Shown: positions 10,523 to 43,355, counted from the first letter of the stretch. The stretch is 64,000 nucleotides of DNA from Candidatus Omnitrophota bacterium (GCA_043814605.1 JBDRJV010000007.1:3354-67353); one strand, 5' to 3'. The notes: generated from the letters alone by a model not told the origin. Made by a program: numbers and translations.

Positions 10523-11938
10523 ATGAAAAGGCATATATTGATTACGGATGATGAGCCGCTAACCAGGAAGTCTCTAAAAGAGATTCTCAGATATGAAGGA
10601 TACAATGTTACCACGGCTGAAGACGGGGCAAAAGCTTGGGAAATTATGCAGCGTTTACCCGTAGATGTGATTATGGCTGACATGAAAATGCCTAAAATCG
10701 GCGGTATGGATTTACTGAAAAAGGTGCGGGAAAATTATCCCCAAACTCAGGTTGTGCTGATGAGTGCTTACGGAAATATTGAAAATGCAGTGGAAGCAAT
10801 GCGTTTAGGGGCTTTTGATTATGTAACTAAGCCCATCGAGGATGATCAGCTAAGATTATTAATGAAAAAAATTGATACACGCAGTAACTTAAGAACTGCA
10901 GAGGTTAGTCCTGACTCAGAAATCCAAGCTCCCAAAGAGATACGGTATAAGTTTTATACAGTTATGGGTAAAGATGAAAAAATGCAGAGAATTTATACAA
11001 TGATTGAAGCAATTGCTGATACTCCGTCAACGGTTTTGATTTGCGGTGAAAGCGGTACGGGCAAAAGAATGATTGCACAAGCAATCCATCAGGCAGATCA
11101 TGCTCGGGTGAATCAGCCGTTTATTGAAATCAGCTGTGGGGCACTTCCGGAAACCTTGCTGGAGAGTGAACTTTTTGGTCATGTCAAAGGATCATTCACG
11201 GGTGCGATTAAAGATCGGGCCGGAAGGTTTGAATTAGCTAATGGCGGGACAATATTACTGGATGAAATCGATACCTGTTCGCCTAGTTTACAGGTCAAGT
11301 TATTAAGAATTTTAGAAGAAGGGGAATACGAACGTGTCGGAGATATAAAAACACTTAAATCTGATGTCCGGGTGATTGCGGCGACGAATCAAAGTTTAGA
11401 AGAACTGGTGCAAAGACGCACATTTAGAGGTGATTTATTTTGGCGCTTAAATGTGATTAATATTAATTTACCGGCTTTAAGAGACCGTCTCGGTGATATT
11501 CCGCTCTTGATCGAACATTTTTTAGAAAAATATAATCGGATGCGCCAGAAATCCGGAAAAGGAATAGTGATCGAAAGAATTTCGGATTCGGCAATGAAGT
11601 TCATGTTGGATTACCCTTGGCCGGGGAATATCCGGGAATTAGAAAATACTGTAGAAAGAGCATGTATTTTAGTAAAAGGAGCAGTGCTGGAACCGCGAGA
11701 CTTACCGGATTCGATAACTCATTATAAAGCAAAAAATAATAATAGTTTTCCCACAAAAGAGGATTTTTCATTGAAAAATGCTTTAAAAAATCCCGAACGG
11801 GACATTGTGATTGATGCTCTTAAGCACAATAATTGGAATTGCACAAGAGCCGCAGCATTTTTAGGTATTAATCGAACAACTTTATATAACAAAATGAAGC
11901 TTTACAAAATAAAAAGAACAAACAGTGTAAGATTTTAG
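10523..11938 (+). CDS. Sigma-54-dependent response regulator (NtrC family; PrsR-like by context)
   Basis: REC domain (ITDDEP...D54). AAA+ sigma-54 interaction motifs GESGTGKR, GAFTGA and ESELFGH. C-terminal Fis-type HTH. Confidence 0.85.
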   Translation: MKRHILITDDEPLTRKSLKEILRYEGYNVTTAEDGAKAWEIMQRLPVDVIMADMKMPKIGGMDLLKKVRENYPQTQVVLMSAYGNIENAVEAMRLGAFDYVTKPIEDDQLRLLMKKIDTRSNLRTAEVSPDSEIQAPKEIRYKFYTVMGKDEKMQRIYTMIEAIADTPSTVLICGESGTGKRMIAQAIHQADHARVNQPFIEISCGALPETLLESELFGHVKGSFTGAIKDRAGRFELANGGTILLDEIDTCSPSLQVKLLRILEEGEYERVGDIKTLKSDVRVIAATNQSLEELVQRRTFRGDLFWRLNVININLPALRDRLGDIPLLIEHFLEKYNRMRQKSGKGIVIERISDSAMKFMLDYPWPGNIRELENTVERACILVKGAVLEPRDLPDSITHYKAKNNNSFPTKEDFSLKNALKNPERDIVIDALKHNNWNCTRAAAFLGINRTTLYNKMKLYKIKRTNSVRF

Positions 11939-15425: not shown

Positions 15426-15488
15426 GAGTAGAAGAGGAAAGGGTTTTTTTAGGAAAATTTAAATTTAAATTTAAAATAGTAAATTTTA

Positions 15489-23934: not shown

Positions 23935-24419
23935 AAAAAGAAAATCTAAACACAAAGCAAAAAACAGCAGATATGAACACAGAGAAAGGCATGAGCATTA
24001 TTATTAAGACAATTACCCGAATAACTGTGGGAATACTTTTTCTTTATGGAGTGAATATGGTTTTACATGGGAATATTAATCCGGGGGCAGGATTTGCCGG
24101 AGGCGGGATTATTGCCTTGGCTTTTATTAATTTAATTTTAGCTTTTGGCAAGGATGCGGCATTAGAAAAACTGAACCACACCGGGGCGGGAATTATTGCG
24201 GGATTAGGTTTATTTATGTTTTTAGTTTTGAGCATTATTGGTTTCTACGAAGACAGCTTTATCAAATATTTTAAACAGGACAACACATTGATTACAGAAT
24301 TTATGGCGGGAAGCAGGGTTACATTATTTAATATTAGTATTTGTGTGGAAGTCGGAGTAGGAATTTTTGCAATTTTTTTTAGCTTAATTACTTTAAAAAT
24401 TATCGAGGGCAGGAAATGA
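23931..24419 (+). CDS. Na+/H+ antiporter subunit B homologue (MnhB/MrpB; MbhE-like)
   Basis: HGNINPGAGFAGGGI matches the MnhB HGxxTPGGGFQGG motif. TTG start with a GGAGGA RBS. Confidence 0.7.
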   Translation: MKKENLNTKQKTADMNTEKGMSIIIKTITRITVGILFLYGVNMVLHGNINPGAGFAGGGIIALAFINLILAFGKDAALEKLNHTGAGIIAGLGLFMFLVLSIIGFYEDSFIKYFKQDNTLITEFMAGSRVTLFNISICVEVGVGIFAIFFSLITLKIIEGRK

Positions 24420-24742
24420 TATACTTTTTATGTTTTGTTCTGTTTTGCGTAGGAATATACGGGTTGTTGATAAAGAAAAATATTATCAAATTAATCATAA
24501 GTTTAATTATTATTAATTATTCAATTCATATTTTTCTGATCCTGATCGGGTTTAGATGGCAGGGGGCAGCGCCGGTACTCGAAACCGGGGGCAAATTAAC
24601 GCTTATTGTGGATCCTTTGCCGCAAGCAATTGTTCTGGTTTTGCTAATTGTGAATATGTCGGCAATAGCATTATTAATTGCCGTAGCGATGAAGCTTTAC
24701 CAGAAATTTAAAACATTTAATATTAAAGAAATGAAAAATTAA
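24416..24742 (+). CDS. MrpC/NuoK-like small membrane subunit
   Basis: 108 aa, three TM helices, NuoK-like. Its position is after MrpB. Confidence 0.55.
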   Translation: MIYFLCFVLFCVGIYGLLIKKNIIKLIISLIIINYSIHIFLILIGFRWQGAAPVLETGGKLTLIVDPLPQAIVLVLLIVNMSAIALLIAVAMKLYQKFKTFNIKEMKN

Positions 24743-24747
24743 AACAA

Positions 24748-26265: not shown

Positions 26266-26759
26266 TGAAAAGAAAAACAGTTTTGTTTATAATTTGTGTT
26301 CTAATTTGGTGCGGATTAAATTGGCCAATCAATCGGAAATGGTTAATTATCGGCTTGGGAGTGAGCACGATTATTGCTTTAGGCTCAGGTGATATTTTTA
26401 TCCGGCGCCCCCATATTTTAATTCATTTTAAAAGATATTTTTGGCTGATTTACTATTTAGCTTTTCTTTCAACTCAAATAATAAAAGCTAATATTTATAT
26501 TATTTATTGTCTTTGCCAGCCGGCTTTATCACTGCATCCGGGGATTGTAAAAGTTAAAACAAGAATAAGAAGTGAAATGGGTCTGACTGTTTTGGCTAAT
26601 TCGATAACTTTTTCCACAGGAACTTGCGTTGTTGATATCGATAACGCTAATGGATATATATATGTACATTGGATGGATGTTAAAAGTCAAAGTATAAAAC
26701 CGGCAACTGAACTGATTGTTGAGAAATTCGAAAAAATATTAAGAGAGGTGTTTGATTAA
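26265..26759 (+). CDS. MrpE-like subunit
   Basis: 164 aa with an N-terminal TM pair. Size and position are typical of MnhE. Confidence 0.5.
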   Translation: MKRKTVLFIICVLIWCGLNWPINRKWLIIGLGVSTIIALGSGDIFIRRPHILIHFKRYFWLIYYLAFLSTQIIKANIYIIYCLCQPALSLHPGIVKVKTRIRSEMGLTVLANSITFSTGTCVVDIDNANGYIYVHWMDVKSQSIKPATELIVEKFEKILREVFD

Positions 26760-27117
26760 TAAAATGGTTGAAGATAAAATAGGGCAAAGAATTTATTGGT
26801 TAATGGGAATAATATTTTTAAGCTTAATGCTGATTGCTACGTTTTTATTATTTCCCTATTTTTTAGAACGGGCTTTATTTTTTCTTTTGATTTGTTGTTT
26901 ATTTGTTCTGATGCGAATGCTTATCGGGCCGGGAGCATGCCAAAGAATAGTTGCGGTAACAATCATTAGCATGCTGATTATCGGATTTTGCGGCATTCTC
27001 GCGTTCTTTACCCAAAAGAACTGGTATATTGATATTGCTTTAGTTTGGGTTTTTCAGTCTTTTATTGCCACACTTACTTTTGCAAAATTTCTCGAAGGAA
27101 AAAGATTTGATGATTAA
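26752..27117 (+). CDS. MrpF-like subunit
   Basis: Small three-TM protein in the MnhF position. Start is TTG 26752 or ATG 26764. Confidence 0.4.
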   Translation: MINKMVEDKIGQRIYWLMGIIFLSLMLIATFLLFPYFLERALFFLLICCLFVLMRMLIGPGACQRIVAVTIISMLIIGFCGILAFFTQKNWYIDIALVWVFQSFIATLTFAKFLEGKRFDD

Positions 27118-27145
27118 ATGATTATTGTAAAGCAGGAAGGAAGTT

Positions 27146-27493
27146 ATGATTGAATTAGGAAAAATATTTTTAATTTTAGGGTTGATATTTGATTTGATCG
27201 GAACAATTAGTTTAATGCGCATGCCGGATATTTATAGCCAATTACAAAGCGCGGCAAAAAGTGTAACCTTAGGGACTTGCTTGATTCTCTTTGGTGTGTT
27301 TTTAAGCCGGGGGATGAGTAGCGCTGGGTTCAAAACACTTTTGGTCCTGGGGTTTTTAATCCTGATCAGTCCTGTTTCTGTACATGCTTTAGCACGGGGA
27401 ATTCATAAAAGCCGAAACATAAACCTTAAAAACTATGTATGTGATCAATACCATGATGATCAATTAAGGAAAAAAGATAACATTTCTAATTAG
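27146..27493 (+). CDS. MrpG-like subunit (MnhG/PhaG)
   Basis: LMRMPDIYSQLQSAAKSVTLG matches the MnhG LRxPDxYTRLHAAxK core. Confidence 0.65.
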   Translation: MIELGKIFLILGLIFDLIGTISLMRMPDIYSQLQSAAKSVTLGTCLILFGVFLSRGMSSAGFKTLLVLGFLILISPVSVHALARGIHKSRNINLKNYVCDQYHDDQLRKKDNISN

Positions 27494-27554
27494 TTACTAT
27501 TAAATAAGTTATAACATAATAGTAATTATTTATGAATTTTTAGCAATTTATACA

Positions 27555-27660
27555 TCCGCGGCCTAAAACCGCTCCCATTTATGGCGCGGATAAAAGGAGG
27601 CCGCTTGAGTATTCCAGGCCAGGAACACGGGCTTTAGCCCGTGAGGGGGTCCATTAGGCA
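27555..27660 (+). ncRNA. GC-rich structured intergenic element, a candidate small RNA or cis-regulatory RNA
   Basis: GC content is locally far above the flanks. Perfect hairpin cacgggc-ttta-gcccgtg. Imperfect stem atccgcggcc...ggcgcggat. No ORF. Confidence 0.3.
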
Positions 27661-27708
27661 AAATTATATATTTTGCCCAGTTGCTTTTTTGATTAAAACT
27701 GGTAAAAT

Positions 27709-27744
27709 TAAGAACTTAAACAGATTAATTTGTTTAAGTTCTTA
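27709..27744. promoter_or_regulatory. Candidate operator: 14-bp perfect inverted repeat TAAGAACTTAAACA-N8-TGTTTAAGTTCTTA abutting a TATAAT -10 box at 27751-27756
   Basis: Perfect 14/14 arms. The spacer contains ATTAAT. It ends 34 nt upstream of the hypA ATG. Confidence 0.4.
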
Positions 27745-27777
27745 GATACCTATAATTTATTTTAAAAAAGGATAAAT

Positions 27778-28020
27778 ATGCACGAAATGGGGATAGCGCA
27801 GGAAGTTTTTAAATCTGTTTTACTGGAACTGAAGGACTATGAATATAAAAAAATTAATAAAATTGTCCTGGAAGTTGGTGAATATAATTTAATTGAGCCA
27901 GAGTCTCTTCAAAATGCGTTTAGGCTGATTGCAGAAAACTCCCGGGCAAATAATGCTATCCTTGAAATAAAACAAATCCCGGGAATGGAAATAAAAATAA
28001 TACACATTGATGCAGAGTAA
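27778..28020 (+). CDS. hypA: HypA-like nickel metallochaperone lacking the zinc-finger domain
   Basis: N-terminal MHE nickel-binding motif. The N-domain and the final beta-strand (IKIIHIDAE, compare E. coli LQIRRIEIDQE) are present. There are no cysteines, so the CxxC...CxxC Zn site is precisely absent. Confidence 0.6.
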   Translation: MHEMGIAQEVFKSVLLELKDYEYKKINKIVLEVGEYNLIEPESLQNAFRLIAENSRANNAILEIKQIPGMEIKIIHIDAE

Positions 28021-29212
28021 AATTGAGCAAATTCAAATACCATTAAATAATATTTACCAAAAATCTTGGATAAAAAATAAAACGGTTTTGGCTTTAGGTC
28101 CGGAACTTAAGTCAAATTATGCTGTTATTATAAATTCTCAGGCTATTGTTTACACCGGGTTTGGAGATTTAAAAAACCCGGATAATTTTACGAGATACAA
28201 AAAACATATTTTAAAAACAATCAAAAATTTATCAAAAAAACCGCAAGTTATAGCCTGTGATTTTAATCCGATATTTTTAAGCTCCCAATTTGCCCGTAAG
28301 TTACAAGCTTCAACTTTAGGTAAAAGCAAATTAAATCCTGTATTGCATCATTATGCGCATATTGCGGCCAGCTGTGCGGTTTTAAATCTAATGCAGACAC
28401 AAGTTTTAGGTATTGTTTGTGATGGTACGGGATTGGGCGATGATGATCAGACTTGGGGCTGTGAGTTTATCAAAAAATCGGCAGGCAATTTTACACGCTG
28501 CGGACACTTAAATTATATTCCTTTGCCTGGTGCGGATTATGCGGTTATTGAGCCTTGGCGCGTCGGGCTTTCCTTGCTTTATCAAACTTTTGGTGATAAA
28601 ATATTTACTCTGGATTTAGCTTTGCTTAAACATCACCAGGATAAAACAAATATATTAGTTAAAATGATCAAACAGGGTTTTAATACGCCGATGGCTTCCA
28701 GTGCAGGTAGATTATTTGATGGAGTTGCGGCAATTTTGGGTTTTTTTAAAAAAATAAAATTTGAAGCTCAGGCAGCTGTACTTTTAGAGCAGCAGGCACA
28801 AAAAGTTATAAATTATGAAAAAGGCAAGTATGCTTATAAGATACAAAAAGCAGGTTTAAAGTTTATTCTGAACACAAATGAGTTAATTGAGGATATTGTG
28901 GCAGACTTAAGGGCTAATCAACCTAAAGAAATTATAGCCGCGCGTTTTCATAATACATTTAGCGATATGATAATAAAAATGGCGGGAAAAATTACGCAAC
29001 AAAAAGAAAATAGTAAGATTAAGGATATTGTTTTATCCGGAGGAGTTTTTTTTAATAGGATAATTTCCGATAAAGTAATCAGGGGCTTAGAAAAGTATGG
29101 ATTTAAAGTACATAAACCAGAGAACTTAATTTTATCTGATGCGGGTTTATCATTAGGGCAGGCGGTGATAGGGTATGTGTTTAGGAATTCCGGTAAAGGT
29201 AAAAAAAATTAA
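28007..29212 (+). CDS. hypF: HypF C-terminal (Kae1/TsaD-like carbamoyltransferase) domain only; the acylphosphatase, Zn-finger and YrdC domains are absent
   Basis: HHYAHIAAS, GIVCDGTGLGDDDQTWGCEF, PLPGADYAVIEPWR, SSAGRLFDGVAAILG and LSGGVFFN match the HypF C-terminal domain. Only about 25 aa precede it. Confidence 0.75.
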   Translation: MMQSKIEQIQIPLNNIYQKSWIKNKTVLALGPELKSNYAVIINSQAIVYTGFGDLKNPDNFTRYKKHILKTIKNLSKKPQVIACDFNPIFLSSQFARKLQASTLGKSKLNPVLHHYAHIAASCAVLNLMQTQVLGIVCDGTGLGDDDQTWGCEFIKKSAGNFTRCGHLNYIPLPGADYAVIEPWRVGLSLLYQTFGDKIFTLDLALLKHHQDKTNILVKMIKQGFNTPMASSAGRLFDGVAAILGFFKKIKFEAQAAVLLEQQAQKVINYEKGKYAYKIQKAGLKFILNTNELIEDIVADLRANQPKEIIAARFHNTFSDMIIKMAGKITQQKENSKIKDIVLSGGVFFNRIISDKVIRGLEKYGFKVHKPENLILSDAGLSLGQAVIGYVFRNSGKGKKN

Positions 29213-29408
29213 AGGGAATACGGCTACAGTCAGTACCGGATCTGTAGAAAAACAGATTGGTATTGAACTGACTCCGGATGTAAAAGTAGGTGATTATGTG
29301 CTTTTACATGCTGGGTTTGCGATAGAAATTATAAATGAAAAAGTTGCTCAAGAGACCTTGAAATTATTAGAAGAAATGTTTTCAATGGAAATAGATGATC
29401 AAAAATAA
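29175..29408 (+). CDS. hypC: HypC/HupF hydrogenase maturation factor
   Basis: N-terminal MCLGIP (essential Cys2), about 77 aa, OB-fold. Confidence 0.8.
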   Translation: MCLGIPVKVKKIKGNTATVSTGSVEKQIGIELTPDVKVGDYVLLHAGFAIEIINEKVAQETLKLLEEMFSMEIDDQK

Positions 29409-29428
29409 TATGGTTAAGGCAAAGGCAA

Positions 29429-30520
29429 TTGAAGCTTATGGATAAAACTAGAAATAATAAATTAGCCAGTCAGCTCCGGCAAACGATTACCCGTTTTTGT
29501 AAAAAAATAGAAAAAAATATATCAATCATGGAAGTCTGCGGTACGCATACAGTGGCTTTGTTTCGTTCCGGGATTAGAGAAATGCTGCCTTCTAATATGA
29601 GAATCATCTCCGGGCCCGGATGTCCGGTTTGCGTAACCGATCAAGCTGATGTTGACCGCGCCATCGGTCTTTGTCAATTAGAGAATACTATTGTTACCAC
29701 TTTTGGTGATATGATGCAGGTTCCGGGGACTGAAGTTAGTTTAGAACAGATGAAAGCACAGGGCCGAGATGTACGGGTTGTATATTCTGCGTTGGATGCT
29801 TTAGAAATTGCTAAAACTAATAATGAAAATGTTATTCATATTGCGGTTGGATTTGAAACTACAGCTCCGACAATTGCAGCAGTTTTAAAAAGAGCTAAAC
29901 AAGAAAAGGTAAATAATTTTTATGTATTGAGTGCGAATAAAATTGTACCGCCGGCTTTGGAGTGTTTGGTTGCTTGCGCAAAAAGCAGGATTAATGCGTT
30001 TATTTTACCCGGACATGTTAGTGCCATTATTGGAGCAAAACCATACCAATTTCTTGCGGATAAGTATAATAAACCCTGTGTGATTGCCGGATTTGAGCCT
30101 GTAGATATTTTGCAGGCAATCGCAATGTTGTGTAAACAAATAGTCGAACAAAAATCGAGGATTGAGATACAATATACACGTTGTGTGCAAAGGGAGGGAA
30201 ACATTTTAGCTCAGAAAATATTAAGAGAAGTTTTTGAGGTTCGGGATGCACAATGGCGCGGCTTGGGGGTAATGAAGAAAAGTGGATTTTTTTTAAATAA
30301 AAATTATGCAGGATTTGAGGCGCGAGAAAATTTTAAGGTAAAAATTCCTAAGCCAAAAAAAACGCCTTGCCGCTGCGGTGATGTTTTGCAGGGGGTAATT
30401 TTGCCGCCGGAATGCAAACTGTTTCAGAATAAATGTACGCCAGAGAATCCGATTGGACCGTGTATGGTTTCAACAGAAGGAACTTGCGCAGCATATTATC
30501 GTTACGCCAGAGTTTCTTAA
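29429..30520 (+). CDS. hypD: HypD hydrogenase maturation factor (Fe-S)
   Basis: CGTHT, GPGCPVCVT, FETTAP and the C-terminal CPVC-type cysteines. ATG 29438 is an alternative start. Confidence 0.9.
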   Translation: MKLMDKTRNNKLASQLRQTITRFCKKIEKNISIMEVCGTHTVALFRSGIREMLPSNMRIISGPGCPVCVTDQADVDRAIGLCQLENTIVTTFGDMMQVPGTEVSLEQMKAQGRDVRVVYSALDALEIAKTNNENVIHIAVGFETTAPTIAAVLKRAKQEKVNNFYVLSANKIVPPALECLVACAKSRINAFILPGHVSAIIGAKPYQFLADKYNKPCVIAGFEPVDILQAIAMLCKQIVEQKSRIEIQYTRCVQREGNILAQKILREVFEVRDAQWRGLGVMKKSGFFLNKNYAGFEARENFKVKIPKPKKTPCRCGDVLQGVILPPECKLFQNKCTPENPIGPCMVSTEGTCAAYYRYARVS

Positions 30521-30540
30521 CTTATTATCAGAGGAAAAAA

Positions 30541-31569
30541 TTGAATGACCAATTAAAAAATAAAAACGTTACATTAGCTTACGGTAATGGCGGACAATTA
30601 ATGCAGCAGCTGATCAATAATTTGATCAAGGCTAATTTTGGCAATCCGATATTAAATAAACTGGATGATGCTGCTGTTTTAAACGGGGTTGGCTTTAGGG
30701 AACATCTTGTATTTACTACAGATTCTTTTGTGGTGAGTCCGATATTTTTTCCGGGTGGCGATATCGGTAAGCTGGCGGTTTGCGGTACAATAAATGACCT
30801 TTGCATGATGGGTGCAAAACCATTATATTTAAGTCTGAGTATGATTATTGAGGAGGGATTTGCTTTTAAAGATCTAGAAAGAATTGTTAGCTCCATTAAG
30901 AAAACAATTAAAATAGCTGGGGTTAAAATAGTTTGCGGTGATACTAAGGTTGTAAATAAAGGTAATTGTGATAAAATATTCATTAATACATCTGGAATCG
31001 GCAGTATTGATAATCGCACAAATATTAGTGCATCTAAGGCTAAACCTGATGACCTAATTATCGTGAGCGGGCCAATTGGTGAACATGGAATTGCAATTAT
31101 TAGTCAACGAAAGGGGCTCGGGTTTAAAACAAAATTGAAAAGTGATTGTGCGCCTTTAAATGATCTTGTCCTAAATTTAATGAAATATAAAAATAAAATT
31201 CATGTTTTCAGAGATCCGACACGCGGGGGGCTTGCGAGTGTATTAAATGAAATTGCGCAACTTTCCAATGTTGGCATAGAAGTTGATGAAGTAAAGATTC
31301 CCGTGAGTAATGCAGTAAAGGGCGCGAGTGCAATTTTGGGATTGGATCCTTTGTACCTGCCGTGTGAAGGAAGATTAGTCGCTGTGGTTAGCCCGGATAA
31401 AATGCCGCAAATTTTAAACTTAATGCAAAAAAATAAAAAAGGCAGGGGAGCAAGAGTTATTGGCCGAATAAAAGCCGGGCACAAAAAAGAGGTATATTTA
31501 AATACTGTAATTGGCGGCAGGCGGATTCTTGATTTACCGATCCGGGAACAAACACCGCGAATTTGTTAA
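30541..31569 (+). CDS. hypE: HypE (carbamoyl dehydratase, PurM-like)
   Basis: PurM-like fold motifs and the invariant C-terminal PRIC. TTG start 7 nt after an AGAGGA RBS, with no overlap with hypD. Confidence 0.85.
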   Translation: MNDQLKNKNVTLAYGNGGQLMQQLINNLIKANFGNPILNKLDDAAVLNGVGFREHLVFTTDSFVVSPIFFPGGDIGKLAVCGTINDLCMMGAKPLYLSLSMIIEEGFAFKDLERIVSSIKKTIKIAGVKIVCGDTKVVNKGNCDKIFINTSGIGSIDNRTNISASKAKPDDLIIVSGPIGEHGIAIISQRKGLGFKTKLKSDCAPLNDLVLNLMKYKNKIHVFRDPTRGGLASVLNEIAQLSNVGIEVDEVKIPVSNAVKGASAILGLDPLYLPCEGRLVAVVSPDKMPQILNLMQKNKKGRGARVIGRIKAGHKKEVYLNTVIGGRRILDLPIREQTPRIC

Positions 31570-33633: not shown

Positions 33634-34245
33634 TTATTTTAAAGAACCTTCTAAAAATTCTTTAACATTATTGGGAGAAAACATAATAAAAAAACTGCCT
33701 TTAATATTTTTTCGCTCAATTTCAAAAAATGTTTCCAAGAGAATAATCTGAACCTCATCCTGTAAAACTTCATTAAAGGCAATATTGCAGACAGTTTCTA
33801 ATGTGCCGCAAATTAAGCTAGGAGTTGAATGCAGAATTACTTTTTTGCTCAGGCTGGAGAGTGTTCCCAAATAAGCAGAAATGACAATATTGCCAATTTC
33901 TTTTAAAAGTGAAACACCGTATTCAGTCTTAGTTCCTAGATTATCCTTATTCTGTTCTGAACATACAGTGTCAATTAAACTATAGGCGCTTTTTTCGGGA
34001 AATATTAATAAAATATTACCAGTAAGATTACTGAGAAGCTGCATTCTTATTCCTACTAAAATATCTGGTATATCTTTTAGTTCAGAGATTAGTTTATCCC
34101 GATCAATGATTTTTAATCCAGGAATGCTCAATCCAATTTTCTGATTTAAAACTTGCGATAAAGCAACAGCGGCATTTCCGATGCAAATATTACCGACTTC
34201 CTTAAGCATATCAATAAAATCAGCATCAATTTTTACTTTTTTCAT
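33634..34245 (-). CDS. CheC-like protein (CheC/CheX/FliY phosphatase family)
   Basis: Duplicated EVGNICIGNAAVALSQ and EIGNIVISAYLGTLS motifs, which are the CheC D/ExxN...GxxAxALS signature. Confidence 0.65.
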   Translation of the reverse strand: MKKVKIDADFIDMLKEVGNICIGNAAVALSQVLNQKIGLSIPGLKIIDRDKLISELKDIPDILVGIRMQLLSNLTGNILLIFPEKSAYSLIDTVCSEQNKDNLGTKTEYGVSLLKEIGNIVISAYLGTLSSLSKKVILHSTPSLICGTLETVCNIAFNEVLQDEVQIILLETFFEIERKNIKGSFFIMFSPNNVKEFLEGSLK

Positions 34246-34296
34246 GAAATTTTAAAACCTCGAGTTTAAATTTATTTTCTTATTAATTATATGCTG

Positions 34297-36051
34297 TTAG
34301 TTAGACTTTTCCTTTAATTTAATAAATTTCTTTTTTATTAATTCCACAAAAATATCCACAATTTTTGGATCCAATTGATCCGGAGTGCATTTTTTTAATA
34401 ATTTAATTGCTTTTTGCACGGAAAAAGCCTTACGGTAAGGCCGGTCCGCAGTCATGGCTTCAAAAGTATCCGCAACAGCTAAAATACGCGAACCAATAGG
34501 GATCTGATCACCTTTAATGCCGTTGGGATATCCACCTCCGTTATGGCGTTCATGGTGGTGATAAATCATAGTTTTAATTTCATTAGATAAATCTGTATTA
34601 TTAATAATGCTAAGAGTTGCAGAAAGCGGATGAATAACTTTTTCTAATAATTTTTTATTAATTATCACGTTATTCATTAAATCTTGGGGAGTATCTTTTG
34701 CCGGTTCGTTCAATTCTCCTAAATAAAAATTTACCGGTTCTAAAATTCGCTTGCCGATTGCCGGGTGATTCTTAATAATTTCATATTCTGCATAAGTTAA
34801 GGTACTCGGTTTTGCCAGGATTTTTTCCGGGATTCCGATTTTTCCAATATCATGTAGTATCCCGGCAATTTGGATGCCTTCGATCATTATTTTGGGCAAA
34901 TTAAGGGCTTGAGCAATGGATACTGCATAATAAGAAACTAAATCAGAATGGCCACGGGTACAGGGGTCTTTTTCCTCAATTGCTTGCGCTAAGGCTTTGA
35001 TTGTACTTAAATAAGTTGTTCTTAAATTTCTGTAAAGAATTGTATTTTCAATAGCTACGGCTACATGATTAGAAAGTGTAATTAAAGACTGCTGATTTTT
35101 TTGATTAAAACCATCATTTTTTAATGAATAAATACTTAACATTCCCCGGGTATTTCCTTTTGATGTTATCGGAGTATTAAGTATAGATTTTATATCTTTA
35201 GGTAAAACTTTTTTCTTAAAACGTTTTGTGGGGCCGGGCACTTTTTTAAGAATTACTTCAATACTGCGTGCATTAATTTTTTTCTTTTTTAACCCGTAGA
35301 TGACTAAACTGAGGTTTCTTTTTAAAAAGTTGATTGTCTTATGGCTTAAAGAGTTTTGGGAACAAATCAATAAAGTATATTTATTTTTTTCAATAATCAA
35401 GAGAGAATAAATATCAAAAGGAAAAAGCTCAAATATACAAACATTCAAAACTTCAAATAAACTCTCTTGATTTGTCGCGGAGTTAAGGGCACAGCTGATC
35501 ACATTGAATCTGAATAAATGCTGGATTTTTTCTTCGGCATCAATATAAAGTTTAGCGTTTTCAATAGCAATAGAACTTTCCGAAGCAAATTTTGCAAAAA
35601 TATTTAATTCCTCCTCTGTGAATTCTTTTGCGCCGGGAATCCGGTTTAAATTGATTACGCCGATTAATTTATCCGCTAAAAGCAGGGGAATAGAAATTGA
35701 GGATTTTAGATTTTTGCGGGGTTTTTTCTTGAAAATAGTATAAAAATTTGTATTATCAATAATTAAAGGCTTTTTGCTGCGAGCAACAATCCCAGCAATC
35801 CCTTTGCCGATTTTTATGTGTGCTCTTTTAACAATGGATTTTTTTATGCCACGGAAGGCTTTGATCCTTAATTCTTTTTGTTTTTTATCAAAAAGCATGA
35901 GAGAGCCAGAATTTGCATGAGTTTGTCTGAGCATTGTTTCCAGGATAATATTAAGCAATTTATTAAAATCATAGGAAGCACCCAGTACATTGCTAATTTC
36001 CTGCAGGCTGGCAAGTTTTAATGTTTTTTCCGTAGATTTAGGTCTATTCAT
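34297..36051 (-). CDS. GAF-GAF-HD-GYP domain protein (predicted c-di-GMP phosphodiesterase)
   Basis: Two GAF-like regions. HD motif GILHDIGKIGIP. HHERHNGGGYPNG is the GYP motif. Confidence 0.8.
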   Translation of the reverse strand: MNRPKSTEKTLKLASLQEISNVLGASYDFNKLLNIILETMLRQTHANSGSLMLFDKKQKELRIKAFRGIKKSIVKRAHIKIGKGIAGIVARSKKPLIIDNTNFYTIFKKKPRKNLKSSISIPLLLADKLIGVINLNRIPGAKEFTEEELNIFAKFASESSIAIENAKLYIDAEEKIQHLFRFNVISCALNSATNQESLFEVLNVCIFELFPFDIYSLLIIEKNKYTLLICSQNSLSHKTINFLKRNLSLVIYGLKKKKINARSIEVILKKVPGPTKRFKKKVLPKDIKSILNTPITSKGNTRGMLSIYSLKNDGFNQKNQQSLITLSNHVAVAIENTILYRNLRTTYLSTIKALAQAIEEKDPCTRGHSDLVSYYAVSIAQALNLPKIMIEGIQIAGILHDIGKIGIPEKILAKPSTLTYAEYEIIKNHPAIGKRILEPVNFYLGELNEPAKDTPQDLMNNVIINKKLLEKVIHPLSATLSIINNTDLSNEIKTMIYHHHERHNGGGYPNGIKGDQIPIGSRILAVADTFEAMTADRPYRKAFSVQKAIKLLKKCTPDQLDPKIVDIFVELIKKKFIKLKEKSN

Positions 36052-36677
36052 GACTTTTTCATGCTTTTAGCAAAAGCTTTACAAGCTTTTAAGATTAACC
36101 GCATTGAATTGGGATCAAAAGCAATAAAAAATTTTCCCTTAACAGAATTTGTGAATTCATTAAAATATGTTTCAATCAGGATAACATTAGGATTTTGTTT
36201 TTTGCTTGTTCCAAAAACGCTTTTTATTACCATTTCGGGAACTCCGTCTGTAAATTGGGGGCAGGATAAGTATACTGGCAATTTAGACATTGCGCTTAAT
36301 GTTGAGACGTAAGCAGAAATAACAATGTTTCCGATTTCCTTGAGTGAGGAAATTCCGATTTGTGTAATTAGCTTGGTTTTTTGCATTTTAGGACTGCCTA
36401 CGAGAAGCTCCATTAGTTGATATGCGCTTTCCTGCGAAAAAAGCAGTAATATTTGACTGTTAATCATCCCTAAAGTTTCCATTTGAATGCCAATTATGGG
36501 GATACCGTCTTTATCAATCGTGGAAGCTAGTTTTACCAGTGGTACGGATTTAAGGGTAGGGACTTGGAGTTCGATTTTTTTAAATAAAATTTGAGCTAAC
36601 GCAACGGCAGCATTACCGGCACAGATATTTCCTACTTCTCTTAAAATATCGCGCTGATTTTTATTAAATTTGTTCAT
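36048..36677 (-). CDS. CheC-like protein, second paralogue
   Basis: EVGNICAGNAAVALAQ and EIGNIVISAYVSTLS. The gene overlaps the HD-GYP gene by 4 nt. Confidence 0.65.
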   Translation of the reverse strand: MNKFNKNQRDILREVGNICAGNAAVALAQILFKKIELQVPTLKSVPLVKLASTIDKDGIPIIGIQMETLGMINSQILLLFSQESAYQLMELLVGSPKMQKTKLITQIGISSLKEIGNIVISAYVSTLSAMSKLPVYLSCPQFTDGVPEMVIKSVFGTSKKQNPNVILIETYFNEFTNSVKGKFFIAFDPNSMRLILKACKAFAKSMKKS

Positions 36678-36888
36678 ATTTTGTAAATCCGTTTGATTTT
36701 AAAAAAATCGTTAACTCCTTTATTTTTAAACTATAACATAAACATCAACCAGTGTCAATAAATTTTGTTTTCATTTTTGAGTATTTATGATATTATATGT
36801 ATTCAGTTTGTTTGCAAAAGAGTACCGAGGCGAATTTTTTCCGATTTAATCAGTTTTAAGGATAAAAAAAGGGTAAAAGAGGCTAAAC

Positions 36889-38190
36889 ATGGGCGAAACT
36901 TTTACAGGTGGAAAACATTTAGAAAATTATAAATATTTGAGTAAAGATGCCCGGATTACAGTGATGCCAATACCTGATCAAGTAATCATTCCTTTATCTC
37001 AACATACAGGATCAATAACTCAACCTGTTGTAAAAAAAGGGGATAGGCTAAAAGTAGGCACTGTTATTGGTACAACAGATAAGTTTATTTCCGCAATTGT
37101 GCATTCGAGTGTTTCCGGGACAGTAAGTAATATTGTTGATTATAATCATCCTGTTTTAGGGCAATCTCCCTCTGTAATTATTGATTCTGATGGAAAAGAT
37201 GAGCGGGAAAATACAATAATTCCGAGAAAAGTAGTGGATTCTTTAGATAAAGATAAATTACTAGAAATTATTAAACAAGCAGGTATTGTAGGTTTAGGCG
37301 GAGCAGCTTTTCCCACGCATGTGAAATTGAATCCGCCTAATCCAGTAGATACATTAGTGATTAATGGGGCTGAATGCGAGCCGTATTTAACCTGTGATTA
37401 TCGTTTAATGATTGAACATACTAATGATATTTTAAAAGGAATTTTACTGCTAAAAAAAATACTTTCTGTTTCTTTAGTGCTGATTGGTATTGAAGAAGAT
37501 AAATCAGAAGCAATGAGTATGATGCGGAATAAAATTGTTGAAAGGGGTTTAGCGGCATTAAAAGTTATCCCGCTTCAGGCAAAGTATCCGCAGGGAGCAG
37601 AAAAACAATTGATTAAGGCTACTTTAGACCGGGAAGTTCCCTCAGGCAAGCTTCCTTTTGATGTCGGCGTGGTTGTGTGTAATGTGGGAACAGCCTATGC
37701 AGTATACGAAGCCGTATATTTAAGTAAGCCACTTTATGAAAGAGTTATTACTGTAACCGGAAATCCGATTAAGAATCCCTCCAATCTAAGAGTAAGAATC
37801 GGGACTAGATTTTCTGAGATAATTTCTTATTGCGGTTTAAAGACTCAGGCCATAGGAAAAATAATTATGGGAGGGCCGATGATGGGCTTGGCCCAATTTA
37901 CAGACGATGTTCCAGTAATTAAAGGGACTTCGGGGATTCTTTTGCTAAGCTCAAAAGACAGTACAATGAGTGAACCAGGGCCATGTATTCGTTGTGGCCG
38001 CTGCGCTACTTTATGTCCTGTAGGGATGTTACCTTATGCGTTAAGCTTATGTGTCGAAGCAAAAAAAATAGATCAAACGCAAATTTATAATGCGCAAGAT
38101 TGCATGGAGTGCGGAATTTGCACTTATGTTTGCCCGGCAAAAAGAAAAATTTTAGAAAGTATCCGGTTGGTAAAGGCGGTTATGAAATGA
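36889..38190 (+). CDS. rnfC: Rnf/Nqr-type complex subunit C
   Basis: GIVGLGGAAFPT (NADH/FMN site), NGAECEPYLTCD, and two 4Fe-4S motifs CIRCGRCATLCP and CMECGICTYVCP. Confidence 0.85.
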   Translation: MGETFTGGKHLENYKYLSKDARITVMPIPDQVIIPLSQHTGSITQPVVKKGDRLKVGTVIGTTDKFISAIVHSSVSGTVSNIVDYNHPVLGQSPSVIIDSDGKDERENTIIPRKVVDSLDKDKLLEIIKQAGIVGLGGAAFPTHVKLNPPNPVDTLVINGAECEPYLTCDYRLMIEHTNDILKGILLLKKILSVSLVLIGIEEDKSEAMSMMRNKIVERGLAALKVIPLQAKYPQGAEKQLIKATLDREVPSGKLPFDVGVVVCNVGTAYAVYEAVYLSKPLYERVITVTGNPIKNPSNLRVRIGTRFSEIISYCGLKTQAIGKIIMGGPMMGLAQFTDDVPVIKGTSGILLLSSKDSTMSEPGPCIRCGRCATLCPVGMLPYALSLCVEAKKIDQTQIYNAQDCMECGICTYVCPAKRKILESIRLVKAVMK

Positions 38191-39170
38191 CATTAAATTT
38201 TAAAAATAATATTATTTTGAGCAGTTCCCCTCACTTACGGAGTCCGGAAACAACATCTAAAATTATGTGGACTGTATTCTTTTGTTTGATTCCTTCAGGG
38301 CTTGTCAGTATCTATGTTTTTGGTATTTCAACCTTGTGGATTATGCTCAGCGCAGTACTGGGGGCAATGCTCAGTGAATGGATATGTTCACAAATACAAA
38401 AAAAACCCGCTACACTTAGTAACGGAAGTGCGGTTTTAACGGGATTATTATTAGCTTATAATCTGCCGCCGGGCTCTCCTTTGTGGATGGCTTTTTTAGG
38501 ATCATGTGTTGCCATAATTTTGGGAAAAGTTGTTTTTGGCGGTTTAGGTTTCAATATTTTTAATCCTGCTTTAATCGGCCGCGTATTTTTAATGGCGAGC
38601 TTTCCGGTATTAATGACACGCTGGCCAGCACCTTTTCAGTTAGACGCTGTAACTGCTCCTACGCCATTAGCTATACTTAAAGATAGTTTTAGTCAAGCCC
38701 CCATTCTAGATAAAGCAGAAATTATTCATTACTCAATACGAGATTTAATCCTCGGGTTTAGGGGCGGATGCATAGGAGAAGCATGTATTTTAGCTTTAGT
38801 GATTGGCGCAGCTTTTTTAATGCTTAAAGGATATATTTCCTGGCATATCCCAGGTAGTTTTATCGGCACGGTTGCTGTTTTTACCTGGATTTTTGCGGGA
38901 GAAAGTTTATTTACCGGTAATTTTTTACTGCATATTCTCTCCGGCGGACTTGTTCTCGGAGCTTTCTATATGGCCACGGATTATGTTACCGGGCCCATAA
39001 CTGTTTATGGAAAAGTACTTTTTGGTATTGGTTGTGGAATTATTACCTGTGTAATCCGGCTGTGGGGAGGATATCCGGAAGGAGTATCTTATTCAATTTT
39101 ATTAATGAATATTCTAACTCCTTTGATGGATAAATTTATCCGGCCGCGAAGATTGGGAGAGAAAAAGTGA
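38187..39170 (+). CDS. rnfD: Rnf/Nqr-type complex subunit D (covalent-FMN membrane subunit)
   Basis: SSPHLRS near the N-terminus. SGGLVLGAFYMATDYVTGP contains the FMN-attachment Thr. Start ATG overlaps the rnfC stop as ATGA. Confidence 0.85.
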   Translation: MTLNFKNNIILSSSPHLRSPETTSKIMWTVFFCLIPSGLVSIYVFGISTLWIMLSAVLGAMLSEWICSQIQKKPATLSNGSAVLTGLLLAYNLPPGSPLWMAFLGSCVAIILGKVVFGGLGFNIFNPALIGRVFLMASFPVLMTRWPAPFQLDAVTAPTPLAILKDSFSQAPILDKAEIIHYSIRDLILGFRGGCIGEACILALVIGAAFLMLKGYISWHIPGSFIGTVAVFTWIFAGESLFTGNFLLHILSGGLVLGAFYMATDYVTGPITVYGKVLFGIGCGIITCVIRLWGGYPEGVSYSILLMNILTPLMDKFIRPRRLGEKK

Positions 39171-39961
39171 ACGCAGTAATTCTGGCGCTATTATCACTAT
39201 CTGGATTAGGTTTTTGTTTTGGATTGTTATTAGCTTGGGCATCAAAAAAATTTCAGCTAAAAGTTGATCCGCGTATTATTGAGATTAATGATTTATTGCC
39301 GCAAGCAAATTGTGGTGCTTGTGGGTTGGCGGGTTGTACAAACTTTGCGGAAGCATTGGTTGAGGAAAAAGTAGAATTGAATGCTTGTGTTGTTTGTAGT
39401 TCTGATAACAAAAAGCAAATTGCACATGTACTGGGGCTGGATTCAGAAGGGGCTAAACTTGCGGCTAGATTAGCTGTGGTCAGTTGTGGCGGTGGCGTTA
39501 ATTGCAAAGATAAGTTTGAATACAGAGGTTTAAAAGACTGCCGTGTTGCCGTATTAACTATGCAAGGGAATAAGCAATGTAGATTTGCTTGTGTTGGCCA
39601 GGGCAGCTGCGTGGATGTTTGTCCCTTTAATGCAATTAAAATGGCTGATACCGGATTGCCGATAATTGATCAAGCGGCGTGTCGAGGTTGCCAGAAATGT
39701 GTGGCGATTTGCCCGCGTCAGCTAATTTTTATGATTGATCGGGAAAAGAAAATTTATATAAACTGCAATTCCCATGATAAAGGATTTGTGGTTACAAAAA
39801 ATTGTAAAGTCGGGTGTATTGGATGCGGAAAATGTGTAAAAACGTGTCCGACAAAAGCGATAAAGCTGGTGGATAATCTCGCGGTTATTGATTATAAAAA
39901 ATGCATAAATTGTACGAAGTGTGTAAAGGAGTGCCCCACAAAAACAATTGCAATTTTATGA
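39167..39961 (+). CDS. rnfB: Rnf subunit B (membrane-anchored polyferredoxin)
   Basis: N-terminal TM helix, the CGACGLAGC cluster, and three or more further 4Fe-4S Cx2Cx2Cx3CP motifs. GTG start with a GGAGAG RBS. Confidence 0.8.
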   Translation: MNAVILALLSLSGLGFCFGLLLAWASKKFQLKVDPRIIEINDLLPQANCGACGLAGCTNFAEALVEEKVELNACVVCSSDNKKQIAHVLGLDSEGAKLAARLAVVSCGGGVNCKDKFEYRGLKDCRVAVLTMQGNKQCRFACVGQGSCVDVCPFNAIKMADTGLPIIDQAACRGCQKCVAICPRQLIFMIDREKKIYINCNSHDKGFVVTKNCKVGCIGCGKCVKTCPTKAIKLVDNLAVIDYKKCINCTKCVKECPTKTIAIL

Positions 39962-41280
39962 ATGCCAGAAAAACATCTCATTTCCCAAAAAAAGTTGCGG
40001 CAATTATAAAAAGGGTTAATTTCAAATCTGGATTATCTTTCCTGTTAGATAATGATGAGTTGATTAAAATCGAAAAAACTCAAGCAGATCATATTTTCGG
40101 AATTGCGGTTGATTTAGGCACGACATCAATTTGTGTTAGCTTGTGTAATTTAGAAAACAAACAGGAGCTAGCCCAAGTTATCGTGAGAAATAAACAATAT
40201 ATTTACGCACAAGATATCCAGGATTTTTCGCAAACGGCGGATAAGCTGCAGCATAATCAGCAATCATTATCTCGGGAACTTATTTACTCTGTAAATAAAG
40301 CAATTAAAGATTGCCTGCGAAAATCAGGCGTAGAAGAAAATAGAATTTTTACAGCGATAGTGGCCGGCAATCCGGTAATGATCAATTTATTGTTACAGAC
40401 TGCAATAAAGACGAACCTGCTTAAAAAACAAAAAAATCAATATCAGGAAAGCTATTTATTTAAGGCTGCCATGCTCGGGCTAAATATTAATCCTCAGGCA
40501 AATATTAGATTTTTGCCAGGCATAGATTCAGTGATTGGTTCGGATACGGTTTCCGCTATTTTAAAACTAGGAATGTTTAAAACTAAAGACCAGATTCTTT
40601 GCATTGATGTGGGGATAAACAGTAAAATTATTTTGGGTAATAATAAGAAAATTACTGTAGCTTGTTCAAAGAGTAGTTCTTCTTTTGAAGGCCACTTGCT
40701 AAAATGCGGCATGATTGCTAAACCTGGGGCGATTGAATGGGTAAGAATAAATAAAGGAGAAATTAAAATATTAACCGTGGGGCATATCCGGCCGGTCGGC
40801 ATTAGCGGAAGCGGGGTTATTGATACGATCAGTGAACTGTTGAAAAATAAAATTATTAATTCTCAAGGACAGATGAAATCTGATTCTTTCGTTGTTTATC
40901 AGGATAAAAGTTCCTGCGTGGAATTAACCGCTGATGATATTCGAAAGATTCAAGTGAGTAAGGCGATAATTTTTGCGGGAATAAAAATATTAATGAAAAA
41001 TTTAAATGTGGGGTTTGATCAGATAAAGAAAGTATTTATTTGCGGGGAATTGGGCAGTTATTTGAATACTGAGCATATTGTTCTCCTGGGAATGGTACCG
41101 GTTGAATTAAAAAATAAAATCAATTTTGGCGGTAATGCCGCATTTTTAGGGGCAAAAATGGTATTGCTGAATAAAAAATATTTAAACCAAATGAATAAAA
41201 TCCAAAAATTAATTAAACATATTGATTTAAAGCAAGATCAGGAATTTTTAGGTTTGTATAAAAGAGCATTAAATTTTTAG
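39958..41280 (+). CDS. ASKHA-superfamily ATPase (DUF4445 / RACo C-terminal-domain-like), lacking a ferredoxin domain
   Basis: GIAVDLGTTSI phosphate-1 motif and an ASKHA-like second half (GISGSGVID). Translationally coupled to rnfB through an ATGA overlap. I reject the 19-aa N-terminal extension of the listed ORF. Confidence 0.5.
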   Translation: MNARKTSHFPKKVAAIIKRVNFKSGLSFLLDNDELIKIEKTQADHIFGIAVDLGTTSICVSLCNLENKQELAQVIVRNKQYIYAQDIQDFSQTADKLQHNQQSLSRELIYSVNKAIKDCLRKSGVEENRIFTAIVAGNPVMINLLLQTAIKTNLLKKQKNQYQESYLFKAAMLGLNINPQANIRFLPGIDSVIGSDTVSAILKLGMFKTKDQILCIDVGINSKIILGNNKKITVACSKSSSSFEGHLLKCGMIAKPGAIEWVRINKGEIKILTVGHIRPVGISGSGVIDTISELLKNKIINSQGQMKSDSFVVYQDKSSCVELTADDIRKIQVSKAIIFAGIKILMKNLNVGFDQIKKVFICGELGSYLNTEHIVLLGMVPVELKNKINFGGNAAFLGAKMVLLNKKYLNQMNKIQKLIKHIDLKQDQEFLGLYKRALNF

Positions 41281-42821: not shown

Positions 42822-43355
42822 TTAAAAAATTAATGGTATTTGTTTGTACTGCTTTATTTTAGCTCTGGGCGGACCTAAAATAATAGACCATATTATACCT
42901 TCTTTTATATTACTTTTCAAGCTGAGGGAGTCAGTTTTTTTTACAATTGGTTTTTCTTCCTTTAACTTAGATGGTTCCGGAAGTACAAAATCTGTTTTTT
43001 TTGTTTGAATTTGTTCTGTTTTTGCTTTTGTTAGTGAAATTTTTTTTAAGCTTTTTTGCTTTAAATCATTGAACTTTTTCCGGCGTACAGCCAGGCGTTC
43101 TTCATAACTTTGATCAGATTGAACATCTTTTAAAAAATCTCCCTCACGCTGGGGCAGATCTTTTATTTGATAATCCTGGACAAATTGCTCCAAACCAAAA
43201 TCTCCTGCTGCTAAGTTGCTTTTTGTTAAGGCATCAGGCACATAAGGTTTAGGAGGTTTCTTTATGGTATTGAATTTTTCTTGTTTTTTTAAATTAGAAA
43301 CAACCCAAATTACCATGATCAGTAAATAAAAAATTAATTTAATTAATCCTTCCAT
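42822..43355 (-). CDS. Hypothetical membrane-anchored, charged protein
   Basis: 177-aa ORF with an N-terminal TM helix followed by a K/E-rich region. It is the last gene of the floA operon. Confidence 0.4.
   Translation of the reverse strand: MEGLIKLIFYLLIMVIWVVSNLKKQEKFNTIKKPPKPYVPDALTKSNLAAGDFGLEQFVQDYQIKDLPQREGDFLKDVQSDQSYEERLAVRRKKFNDLKQKSLKKISLTKAKTEQIQTKKTDFVLPEPSKLKEEKPIVKKTDSLSLKSNIKEGIIWSIILGPPRAKIKQYKQIPLIF

Follow-up and report, generated by a model that had tools for sequence, protein, structure and literature searches.

The window analysed here, a stretch of 64,000 nucleotides (nt) from a Candidatus Omnitrophota bacterium (GCA_043814605.1 JBDRJV010000007.1:3354-67353), contains a three-gene operon in which two CheC-type proteins, CheC-A and CheC-B, flank a tandem-GAF HD-GYP enzyme of the cyclic di-GMP (c-di-GMP) phosphodiesterase type. 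The genes for CheC-A and the HD-GYP enzyme are translationally coupled, and the same pair recurs in every related Omnitrophota locus in which the upstream side of the HD-GYP gene is visible. There is good comparative evidence that this CheC and the HD-GYP enzyme are functionally linked, because the pair and its overlap persist at approximately 40% protein identity despite unrelated flanks. Furthermore, related genomes encode a CheA-based chemosensory system elsewhere. The reading we favor, to which we would assign about an even chance, is that the operon is an accessory to the cell's own chemosensory network and serves as its signal-lowering branch, in which phosphorylated CheY (CheY~P) and c-di-GMP would be lowered together.

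The genes and junctions of the operon, together with a possible promoter, are listed below.

36677..36048, minus strand: cheC-A, encoding a 209-residue stand-alone CheC-type protein (Pfam CheC; Foldseek match to CheC)
36051..34297, minus strand: the GAF-GAF-HD-GYP gene, encoding 584 residues (Pfam GAF_2 and HD_5/HD)
34245..33634, minus strand: cheC-B, encoding a 203-residue CheC paralog (Pfam CheC)
36048..36051, minus strand: ATGA in which the cheC-A stop codon overlaps the HD-GYP start codon, read from the sequence as translational coupling
34246..34296, minus strand: 51-nt spacer between the HD-GYP gene and cheC-B, without overlap, containing a GAGG Shine-Dalgarno-like element
36730..36758, minus strand: best sigma-70-like promoter match, a candidate, TTGACA-17-TATAGT with an extended -10 TG (11 of 12 positions)

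The original prediction had claimed an operon at this place, in which two genes for paralogous CheC-like proteins surround one for a tandem-GAF HD-GYP enzyme, with stop overlapping start at each junction. All three open reading frames (ORFs) were found, at the exact coordinates given above and all on the minus strand, and the domain assignments are right: Pfam CheC is present in both flanking proteins, which are paralogs with 40% mutual identity, and Pfam GAF_2 and HD_5/HD in the middle protein. The overlap, however, is confined to the cheC-A/HD-GYP junction, the HD-GYP gene and cheC-B being separated by the spacer. The GAGG element stands approximately 13 nt ahead of the cheC-B ATG, and the equivalent spacer in orthologs measures 8-36 nt. 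The candidate promoter ends 53 nt from the cheC-A ATG, within the 211-nt divergent intergenic region between cheC-A and rnfC. We treat it as a candidate only, because the total of such matches in the region is no higher than in shuffles.

The loci were compared by fetching relatives, clustering the neighboring ORFs ourselves and running Pfam on cluster representatives. CheC-A and the HD-GYP protein of the window are 100% identical to NCBI proteins from a Candidatus Omnitrophota metagenome-assembled genome (MAG), where they lie on a contig of 264,263 bp. Some 20-50 orthologs were recovered with conserved gene order, and the CheC homologs, found on the same contigs, form an A group with 51-69% identity to CheC-A and a B group with 36-42%. 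Three flanking contexts can be distinguished. In the first (T1), which is that of the window, CheC-A, GAF-GAF-HD-GYP and CheC-B lie between a divergent RnfC gene and convergent HcyBio, HypE or Hyp genes (loci L001, L081-84, L089, L091, L093 and L094, with partial views in L090, L092, L095, L108, L109 and L112). In the second (T2; loci with the pair L096 and L098-L102), a different, housekeeping block (PurD through to NrdR, a BFN nuclease, a metallophosphoesterase and a CCA-adding enzyme) is followed by CheC and GAF-GAF-HD-GYP, without a second CheC. The third, from a more divergent Omnitrophota MAG (L088, 94-2987), reads PilZ, CheC-A and HD-GYP, followed by a kinase that is unrelated. The addition of CheC-B is specific to T1; it is absent from both L002 and L088.

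The co-occurrence of CheC and HD-GYP in other genomes, which the original prediction had proposed as a check, is borne out: a CheC gene lies directly upstream of the HD-GYP ortholog in 19 of the 19 Omnitrophota loci with a visible upstream side, across all three contexts. The CheC/HD-GYP junction ranges from -4 to +12 nt over these loci, and in most pairs of both T1 and T2 it is -4 or -1. The T2 proteins are only 37-41% identical to those of the window, with the pair and its overlap retained and the flanks unrelated, and the HD-GYP motifs are retained in all full-length T1, T2 and L088 orthologs, the exception being a deletion variant (L082-84) considered below. Among 80 loci from other genomes with relatives of the HD-GYP protein, CheC flanks were found only at the Omnitrophota locus L001.

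These comparisons also bear on the possibility that there is no functional link at all, and that an orphan CheC and a GAF-HD-GYP gene are simply neighbors by descent in one clade. The T1 flanks (Rnf-like and hyp genes) are themselves conserved over 20 kb, so inherited synteny in the clade is strong, and members of the triad have been lost independently in some lineages. Nevertheless, the pair is retained across wholly different flanks (T1, T2 and L088), it is retained with its 4-nt overlap where the proteins have diverged to approximately 40% identity, and the HD-GYP ortholog never occurs without CheC. We therefore regard shared descent as an improbable explanation for the pairing.

Both flanking proteins, CheC-A and CheC-B, have the CheC fold, stand alone and carry catalytic E-x2-N motifs. 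Pfam CheC (PF04509; cut-off 22) matches each in two stretches, with 59.3 bits (E 3.4e-16) for CheC-A and 57.0 bits (E 1.9e-15) for CheC-B, and CheC and CheX are the sole Pfam families in both proteins. CheC-A matches Thermotoga maritima CheC (1XKR) by phmmer at E 4.9e-20, and CheC-B matches it over residues 5-191 at E 1.8e-24. AlphaFold2 models of the two proteins (predicted local distance difference test score 84 for each; predicted template modeling score 0.81-0.82) both find CheC (2F9Z_A/1XKR) as the best Foldseek match, with template modeling (TM) scores of 0.80-0.86 for CheC-A and 0.75-0.79 for CheC-B, followed in rank by FliY, an archaeal CheC-like protein, FliM and CheX. Exact matches to [D/S]x3-E-x2-N-x22-P number four, two in each window CheC, and align with the T. 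maritima CheC sites.

36627-36650, minus strand: CheC-A site 1, DILREVGN, E14/N17 (motif match at residues 10-40)
36327-36350, minus strand: CheC-A site 2, SSLKEIGN, E114/N117 (motif match at residues 110-140)
34189-34212, minus strand: CheC-B site 1, DMLKEVGN, E16/N19 (motif match at residues 12-42)
33889-33912, minus strand: CheC-B site 2, SLLKEIGN, E116/N119 (motif match at residues 112-142)

The Glu and Asn residues, loss of which would have spoken against the original prediction, are accordingly present in all four motifs. The full consensus is said to go back to Park et al. in 2004. The EXXN motif of CheC-family phosphatases is also cited in more recent work (PMC12799141).

The CheC fold is common to the middle domains of FliM and FliY (Foldseek 4HYN at TM 0.74-0.84, FliM at approximately 0.65), and the two proteins could in principle be structural, FliM/FliY-like switch components of a motility machine instead of enzymes. 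However, at 203-209 residues they carry neither a FliN-type C-terminal domain nor an N-terminal segment of the FliM CheY-binding-peptide kind, their best fold and sequence matches are to CheC itself, and their catalytic motifs are conserved, all of which makes a structural role highly improbable. The NCBIfam FliY models cover residues 3-145 only, with scores far under their cut-offs.

In the middle protein, a tandem-GAF HD-GYP enzyme, the metal-binding and GYP motifs are intact (Pfam HD_5, 137 bits, E 6.9e-40; GAF_2, 5.6e-23, in two stretches). Its domains are placed as follows.

35560-35970, minus strand: GAF-1, residues ~28-164
35032-35499 (approximate), minus strand: GAF-2, residues ~185-340
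34321-35016, minus strand: HD-GYP domain, residues ~346-577

The H/HD/H/HHE/GYP/D set is complete (GHS367, HDIGK400, NHP428, HHHERHNGGGYP498-509 and ADTF527), and a variable insert of approximately 50 residues (440-492) lies ahead of the HHE motif. The closest solved relative is PmGH of Persephonella marina (4MCW, E 1.3e-40), in which a GAF domain likewise precedes HD-GYP and the H, HD, H, HHE, D and GYP residues align. The window protein differs in having two GAF domains where PmGH has one, in its insert of approximately 50 residues, in the CheC that is always encoded upstream, and in a Cys at the position of PmGH Glu185, which we take to be a third-metal ligand. As this position is occupied by Cys in the window protein and by Tyr in its orthologs, a two-metal HD-GYP site appears more likely. 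Pfam detected no Response_reg (receiver) domain in the middle protein, the N-terminus being GAF-GAF. The first GAF resembles cyclic nucleotide monophosphate-type GAFs in general terms only (5W10, 1.5e-11), and no clean NKFDE motif was seen by eye in the GAF. The GAF-HD-GYP architecture class has been described by Galperin and Chou, whose definition of the HD-GYP domain, HHExh[D/N]GxGYP, fits the window protein (bioRxiv 10.1101/2021.11.05.467447).

A central question concerns the chemosensory setting of the operon. All window ORFs with a plausible product were scanned against Pfam, and none proved to be a cheA, cheW, cheY, cheR, cheB, cheD, methyl-accepting chemotaxis protein (MCP), flagellar, pilus or GGDEF/EAL/PilZ gene. 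The original prediction was correct that chemotaxis and flagellar genes are missing nearby, and neither the 33 kb to one side nor the 27 kb to the other contains a che or fla cluster. It had further taken the operon for a stand-alone module in a genome that might encode no chemotaxis system, and this part does not hold. The operon looks isolated only locally, because the triad genomes encode a CheA-based system elsewhere: in relatives a full Che cluster shares the contig or the assembly with these genes, and CheA could be placed by accession proximity in nine of nine genomes, that of the window included. The proposed signaling module joining CheY~P to c-di-GMP survives in the functional link between CheC and HD-GYP indicated by gene order (19/19), though not as a system without chemotaxis, and the original alternative of a CheC repurposed for a non-Che receiver is not required. 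The puzzle of a CheC without any chemotaxis system largely dissolves.

Approximately 40 metagenome loci are Che clusters. Together they hold CheA, CheW, MCP, CheY-like receiver (REC) proteins, REC-CheB, two CheR, CheD and two CheC paralogs, along with a 713-residue PilM/FtsA-like protein, PilM, PilC (T2SSF) and pilins, and in seven loci a REC-GGDEF protein stands beside the che-pilus cluster. The clusters lie amid type IV pilus genes (L113-L157, for example L129 at 1-16585, L139, L141 and L147; also L140 at 5173-14997), typically in the order PilC/T2SSF, PilM, pilins, CheY, CheC, CheA, CheC and the 713-residue PilM/FtsA-like protein, then CheR twice, REC, CheD and REC-CheB, with MCP, CheW and sometimes REC-GGDEF near. 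No flagellar genes were seen in the che-pilus loci L113-L157 and L140. Four contigs (Ga0315276_10000003, Ga0074199_1000048, Ga0315275_10000006 and the 1.87-Mb Ga0209340_1000001) carry a T2 locus and a che-pilus cluster 75-100 kb apart (L096+L129, L103+L134, L102+L139 and L105+L141), and assembly SDBU01 contains both a T1 triad (L093) and the L140 cluster, which reads MCP-CheW-CheY-CheC-CheD-CheB-CheA-CheC-PilM-like. The CheD of relatives lies within the separate che cluster. A search with the SDBU01 CheA returned approximately 40 Omnitrophota orthologs at 57-66% identity, and in all nine genomes checked the accessions of the triad protein and the CheA ortholog are 82-1,599 apart, therefore the two belong to the same submitted genome.

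P0001 (window CheC-A), MFH1459074.1; CheA P0084, MFH1460339.1; gap 1,265
P0181, MFH1061744; CheA P0072, MFH1062969; gap 1,225
P0188, MFH2145681; CheA P0064, MFH2145001; gap 680
P0294, MBU0634900; CheA P0297, MBU0633634; gap 1,266
P0295, MBU1925530; CheA P0069, MBU1924582; gap 948
P0296, MBU2063231; CheA P0073, MBU2063313; gap 82
P0180, MBU1086615; CheA P0067, MBU1088214; gap 1,599
P0183, MBU1043535; CheA P0068, MBU1044688; gap 1,153
P0193 (L088), MCM8814045; CheA P0089, MCM8812697; gap 1,348

As a separate observation on these CheA proteins, the nearest relatives of the T1-lineage CheA (P0054) outside the phylum are archaeal (Methanoperedens and Methanolobus, 44-47% identity), ranking level with a second Omnitrophota CheA lineage (approximately 44%).

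Given this setting, the CheCs might still act on a receiver outside the CheA pathway, such as the REC-GGDEF protein, the sigma-54 activator or another response regulator, in which case the module would be unrelated to taxis. REC-GGDEF genes do adjoin che-pilus clusters in the seven loci noted above, a locus on an unrelated metagenome contig (L161) combines HD-GYP, REC proteins and two CheCs with no CheA in 16 kb, and CheC1 of Halobacterium salinarum is an interaction partner of the REC-containing CheB (PMC3579733). Against this, all characterized CheC-family enzymes use CheY-type receivers, and every one of the triad genomes checked has a CheA system. The only receiver protein in the window, a REC-sigma54-HTH activator (10523..11938), is 22 kb from the operon, outside the conserved neighborhood of the triad, and adjoins its own GAF-HisKA kinase and exosortase/EpsH genes. 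The original prediction had called this regulator nearby, but it shows no positional link to the operon, and as a partner for the CheCs it can be ruled out on position and context. Overall, a receiver outside the CheA pathway seems to us decidedly unlikely.

The L161 locus (2-9288) merits description in its own right. It encodes PilM/PilN, an AAA ATPase, a HAMP-HD-GYP protein, a REC-GAF-PAS-PAS histidine kinase, a REC protein and two adjacent CheCs. HD-GYP, REC and paired CheC genes have thus come together here independently.

Since these genomes hold several CheC paralogs, we built a neighbor-joining tree of CheC relatives and read out the active-site columns. The site 2 Glu and Asn are invariant in 30 relatives of the window CheCs. 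HD-GYP-linked CheC-A and the T2 CheCs are canonical at both sites, except for a change of the site-1 Asn to Thr in one T2 locus without HD-GYP. Most CheC-B orthologs have His in place of the site-1 Asn, which the window copy retains, and are canonical at site 2. In most che clusters, conversely, the catalytic Asn of the in-cluster CheCs is replaced by V, I, L, S, H or T. The CheC encoded between CheY and CheA is canonical at site 1 and has Val, Ile, Leu or Met for the site-2 Asn; the CheC between CheA and the PilM-like gene has Thr or Ser at site 1 in half of the loci and a degenerate site 2, mostly His, in all loci but one. A few other Che-cluster CheCs retain one or both sites (e.g. L146). 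With the in-cluster copies mostly degenerate, the orphan CheC-A, taken to be the one paralog in these genomes that generally has two canonical sites, becomes the best candidate phosphatase, and is predicted to be the most competent among the CheC paralogs of these genomes. The degenerate in-cluster CheCs may be CheY-P binders instead of enzymes.

A detailed consideration of these features enabled us to propose a model for the operon. The network it would serve comprises CheA, CheW, MCP, several CheY-like receivers, CheB, CheR and CheD, and would be physically linked to type IV pilus genes. In this model, CheC-A and CheC-B would hydrolyze the acyl-phosphate of one or more CheY-like receivers phosphorylated by that CheA, and the HD-GYP enzyme would hydrolyze c-di-GMP upon ligand binding to its GAF domains. 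Because the CheCs and the HD-GYP enzyme would be co-expressed, receiver phosphorylation and c-di-GMP would fall jointly, making the operon an 'off' module for a pilus- or adhesion-linked chemosensory pathway. It is plausible that the result would be a reset of the pilus/adhesion decision. Alternatively, a REC-GGDEF cyclase could be shut off while its product is destroyed, in which case the module would possibly oppose REC-GGDEF output.

Several observations weigh against this reading. The operon has no receiver gene of its own, and the che clusters already hold CheC and CheD, so that extra phosphatases are not obviously needed. The window CheCs are not orthologs of the characterized Thermotoga CheC: their scores against the NCBIfam equivalog model NF041093 (CheC_Thtogales), 114 and 112 bits, fall far under its cut-off of 250. 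A Che system is probably encoded in the window's own genome as well, but its placement there comes from accession proximity and is indirect. Moreover, the coupling is not obligatory and the module is plastic. In the L082-84 variant (10636-11889; a single species from three samples, whose cluster, P0194, has four members), the middle protein has shrunk to 417 residues by in-frame deletion of the whole HD...HHE...GYP core; what remains of it are both GAFs, the first HD-GYP helix and the C-terminal ~55 residues, with a CheC gene still on either side. Six T2 loci (L097 and L103-L107) hold CheC without the HD-GYP gene, and in one lineage, L110 (6419-7054) and L111 (7953-8588), CheC-A and the HD-GYP gene are missing from the RnfC/HcyBio slot, which contains only a CheC-B ortholog (59% identical) whose site 1 has decayed to K...H.

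Some of the same observations can be fitted to a different wiring, in which CheY~P-bound CheC-A, possibly with CheC-B, binds the GAF-GAF-HD-GYP protein and switches the phosphodiesterase, as a kind of 'split RpfG'. The CheCs would then be mainly CheY~P sensors and not bulk phosphatases, and Che output would be written into c-di-GMP in trans, much as RpfG achieves in cis through its fused REC domain. The HD-GYP ortholog always has a CheC upstream (19/19), usually with the overlapping codons typical of fixed-ratio subunits, and persistence of the triad as GAF-GAF alone after loss of the catalytic core would fit a CheC-GAF complex. In Bacillus subtilis, CheY-P modulates the interaction of CheC with CheD, which is a precedent for such an arrangement. 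Further precedents for regulation through partners are the CheC-CheD and CheC1-CheC2 interactions (PMC3579733) and the direct inhibition of the CheC-family protein CheX by the PilZ protein PlzC in Vibrio cholerae (PMC12799141). However, no CheC-GAF or CheC-HD-GYP fusion was found in the top 120 HD-GYP homologs or among the best 150 of 3,035 CheC representatives, the long matches being CheW-CheC, CheW-CheC-CheC or tandem CheC. The strict conservation of the catalytic Glu and Asn points to selection on catalysis, and several lineages have CheC but no HD-GYP gene. We consider this wiring unlikely, although it is the strongest of the competing explanations, and prefer joint lowering of CheY~P and c-di-GMP.

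Each component of the operon comes from a known family, and it is their conserved coupling that is real and testable. Like CheC of T. maritima and B. subtilis (1XKR, 2F9Z), the window CheCs are stand-alone proteins of approximately 205 residues with an internally duplicated fold and two active-site motifs. Unlike these, with which they share 24-30% identity, they are encoded away from cheD and the che operon, as two paralogs flanking an HD-GYP gene, with CheC-A coupled to it and CheC-B just downstream. RpfG-type REC-HD-GYP proteins join phosphorylation-type signaling to c-di-GMP hydrolysis, as may be the case here. The window HD-GYP protein differs in having no REC domain, so any phospho-signal would have to come in trans. 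Wsp/WspR is a chemosensory system with a c-di-GMP output. Other cross-talk between Che pathways and c-di-GMP is known from the Pch phosphodiesterase at CheA, MapZ-CheR1 and the Cle proteins (PMC12799141). All of these resemble our case in connecting a Che pathway with c-di-GMP, and REC-GGDEF genes stand beside Omnitrophota che-pilus clusters, but none joins a CheC-type phosphatase and an HD-GYP enzyme in one operon. H. salinarum (PMC3579733) similarly has several CheC paralogs (CheC1, CheC2 and CheC3), with cheC2 outside the che cluster; these are archaeal, have a single-domain architecture and lack an HD-GYP partner.

Further c-di-GMP links are found around Omnitrophota CheCs. In L088, the PilZ-domain gene lies directly upstream of the CheC-A/HD-GYP pair, an arrangement comparable to V. 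cholerae PlzC-CheX, where a PilZ protein of the c-di-GMP network controls a CheC-family phosphatase (PMC12799141). There, the partner is a c-di-GMP receptor and the inhibition is c-di-GMP-independent; here, the partner would be a c-di-GMP-degrading enzyme. In another Omnitrophota MAG (L087, 5133-6948), ComFB, CheC and a ComFB-CheR fusion are encoded together. ComFB is a receptor family for c-di-GMP and c-di-AMP (cyclic dinucleotides, c-di-NMP), and a ComFB-CheR fusion in Omnitrophota has been mentioned previously (PMC12448109).

We found no description of a coupled CheC/HD-GYP pair in the literature searched, although coverage was incomplete and this negative is weak; public annotation calls the two proteins 'chemotaxis protein CheC' and 'HD domain-containing phosphohydrolase'. 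A coupling that proves functional would connect chemosensory with c-di-GMP signaling through a junction of a new kind. The known junctions are PilZ receptors, REC-GGDEF outputs and an EAL enzyme docked at CheA, none of which involves a CheY~P phosphatase and a phosphodiesterase made together. Should CheY~P-bound CheC instead switch the enzyme directly, the CheC fold would gain a new role, and Che signaling would be wired to second-messenger turnover in a new way. If the coupling is not functional, what remains is an ordinary orphan CheC paralog beside a common type of sensor phosphodiesterase. The Omnitrophota are an uncultured phylum whose attachment and pilus biology are of current interest, and the three small soluble proteins, combined with the CheYs of the genome, offer a system that is testable in vitro.

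The remainder of the window is varied. The operon is flanked convergently by hypA-F-(C)-D-E, Thi4 and HcyBio, and divergently by RnfC-RnfD-RnfB-like-RACo-MnmA. In the latter block (36889-41280), the RnfC-RnfD-RnfB-like trio precedes an ASKHA protein of the RACo type (corrinoid activase-like); RnfG/E/A do not follow, the next gene being mnmA, and the Rnf-RACo block adjoins the triad throughout the T1 clade. On the other side, at 23410-31569, an Mrp/Mbh-type antiporter (MbhD, MnhB, NuoK-like, proton-antiporter M, MnhE, MrpF and MnhG) is followed by hypA, hypF, a probable hypC (placed from synteny with relatives), hypD and hypE; no catalytic subunit of a hydrogenase turned up anywhere in the 64-kb window.

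The exosortase locus at 3449-13055 comprises an exosortase (EpsH), DUF3485, a sugar transferase, DUF4114, TPR, the GAF-HisKA kinase, REC-sigma54 and PocR-GAF, and looks to be of the PEP-CTERM/PrsK-PrsR type. At 13245-15425, on the minus strand, lies a 726-residue DEAD/Helicase_C helicase, which we call Hel308-like, bacterial as it is, because of its archaeal Helicase_dom4_arc domain and HHH motifs. Four ORFs have no Pfam family: 395-2866 (823 residues), 7253-8125 (290 residues), 59542-60573 (343 residues) and 42822-43355 on the minus strand (177 residues), the last of which is conserved after FloA across the clade.

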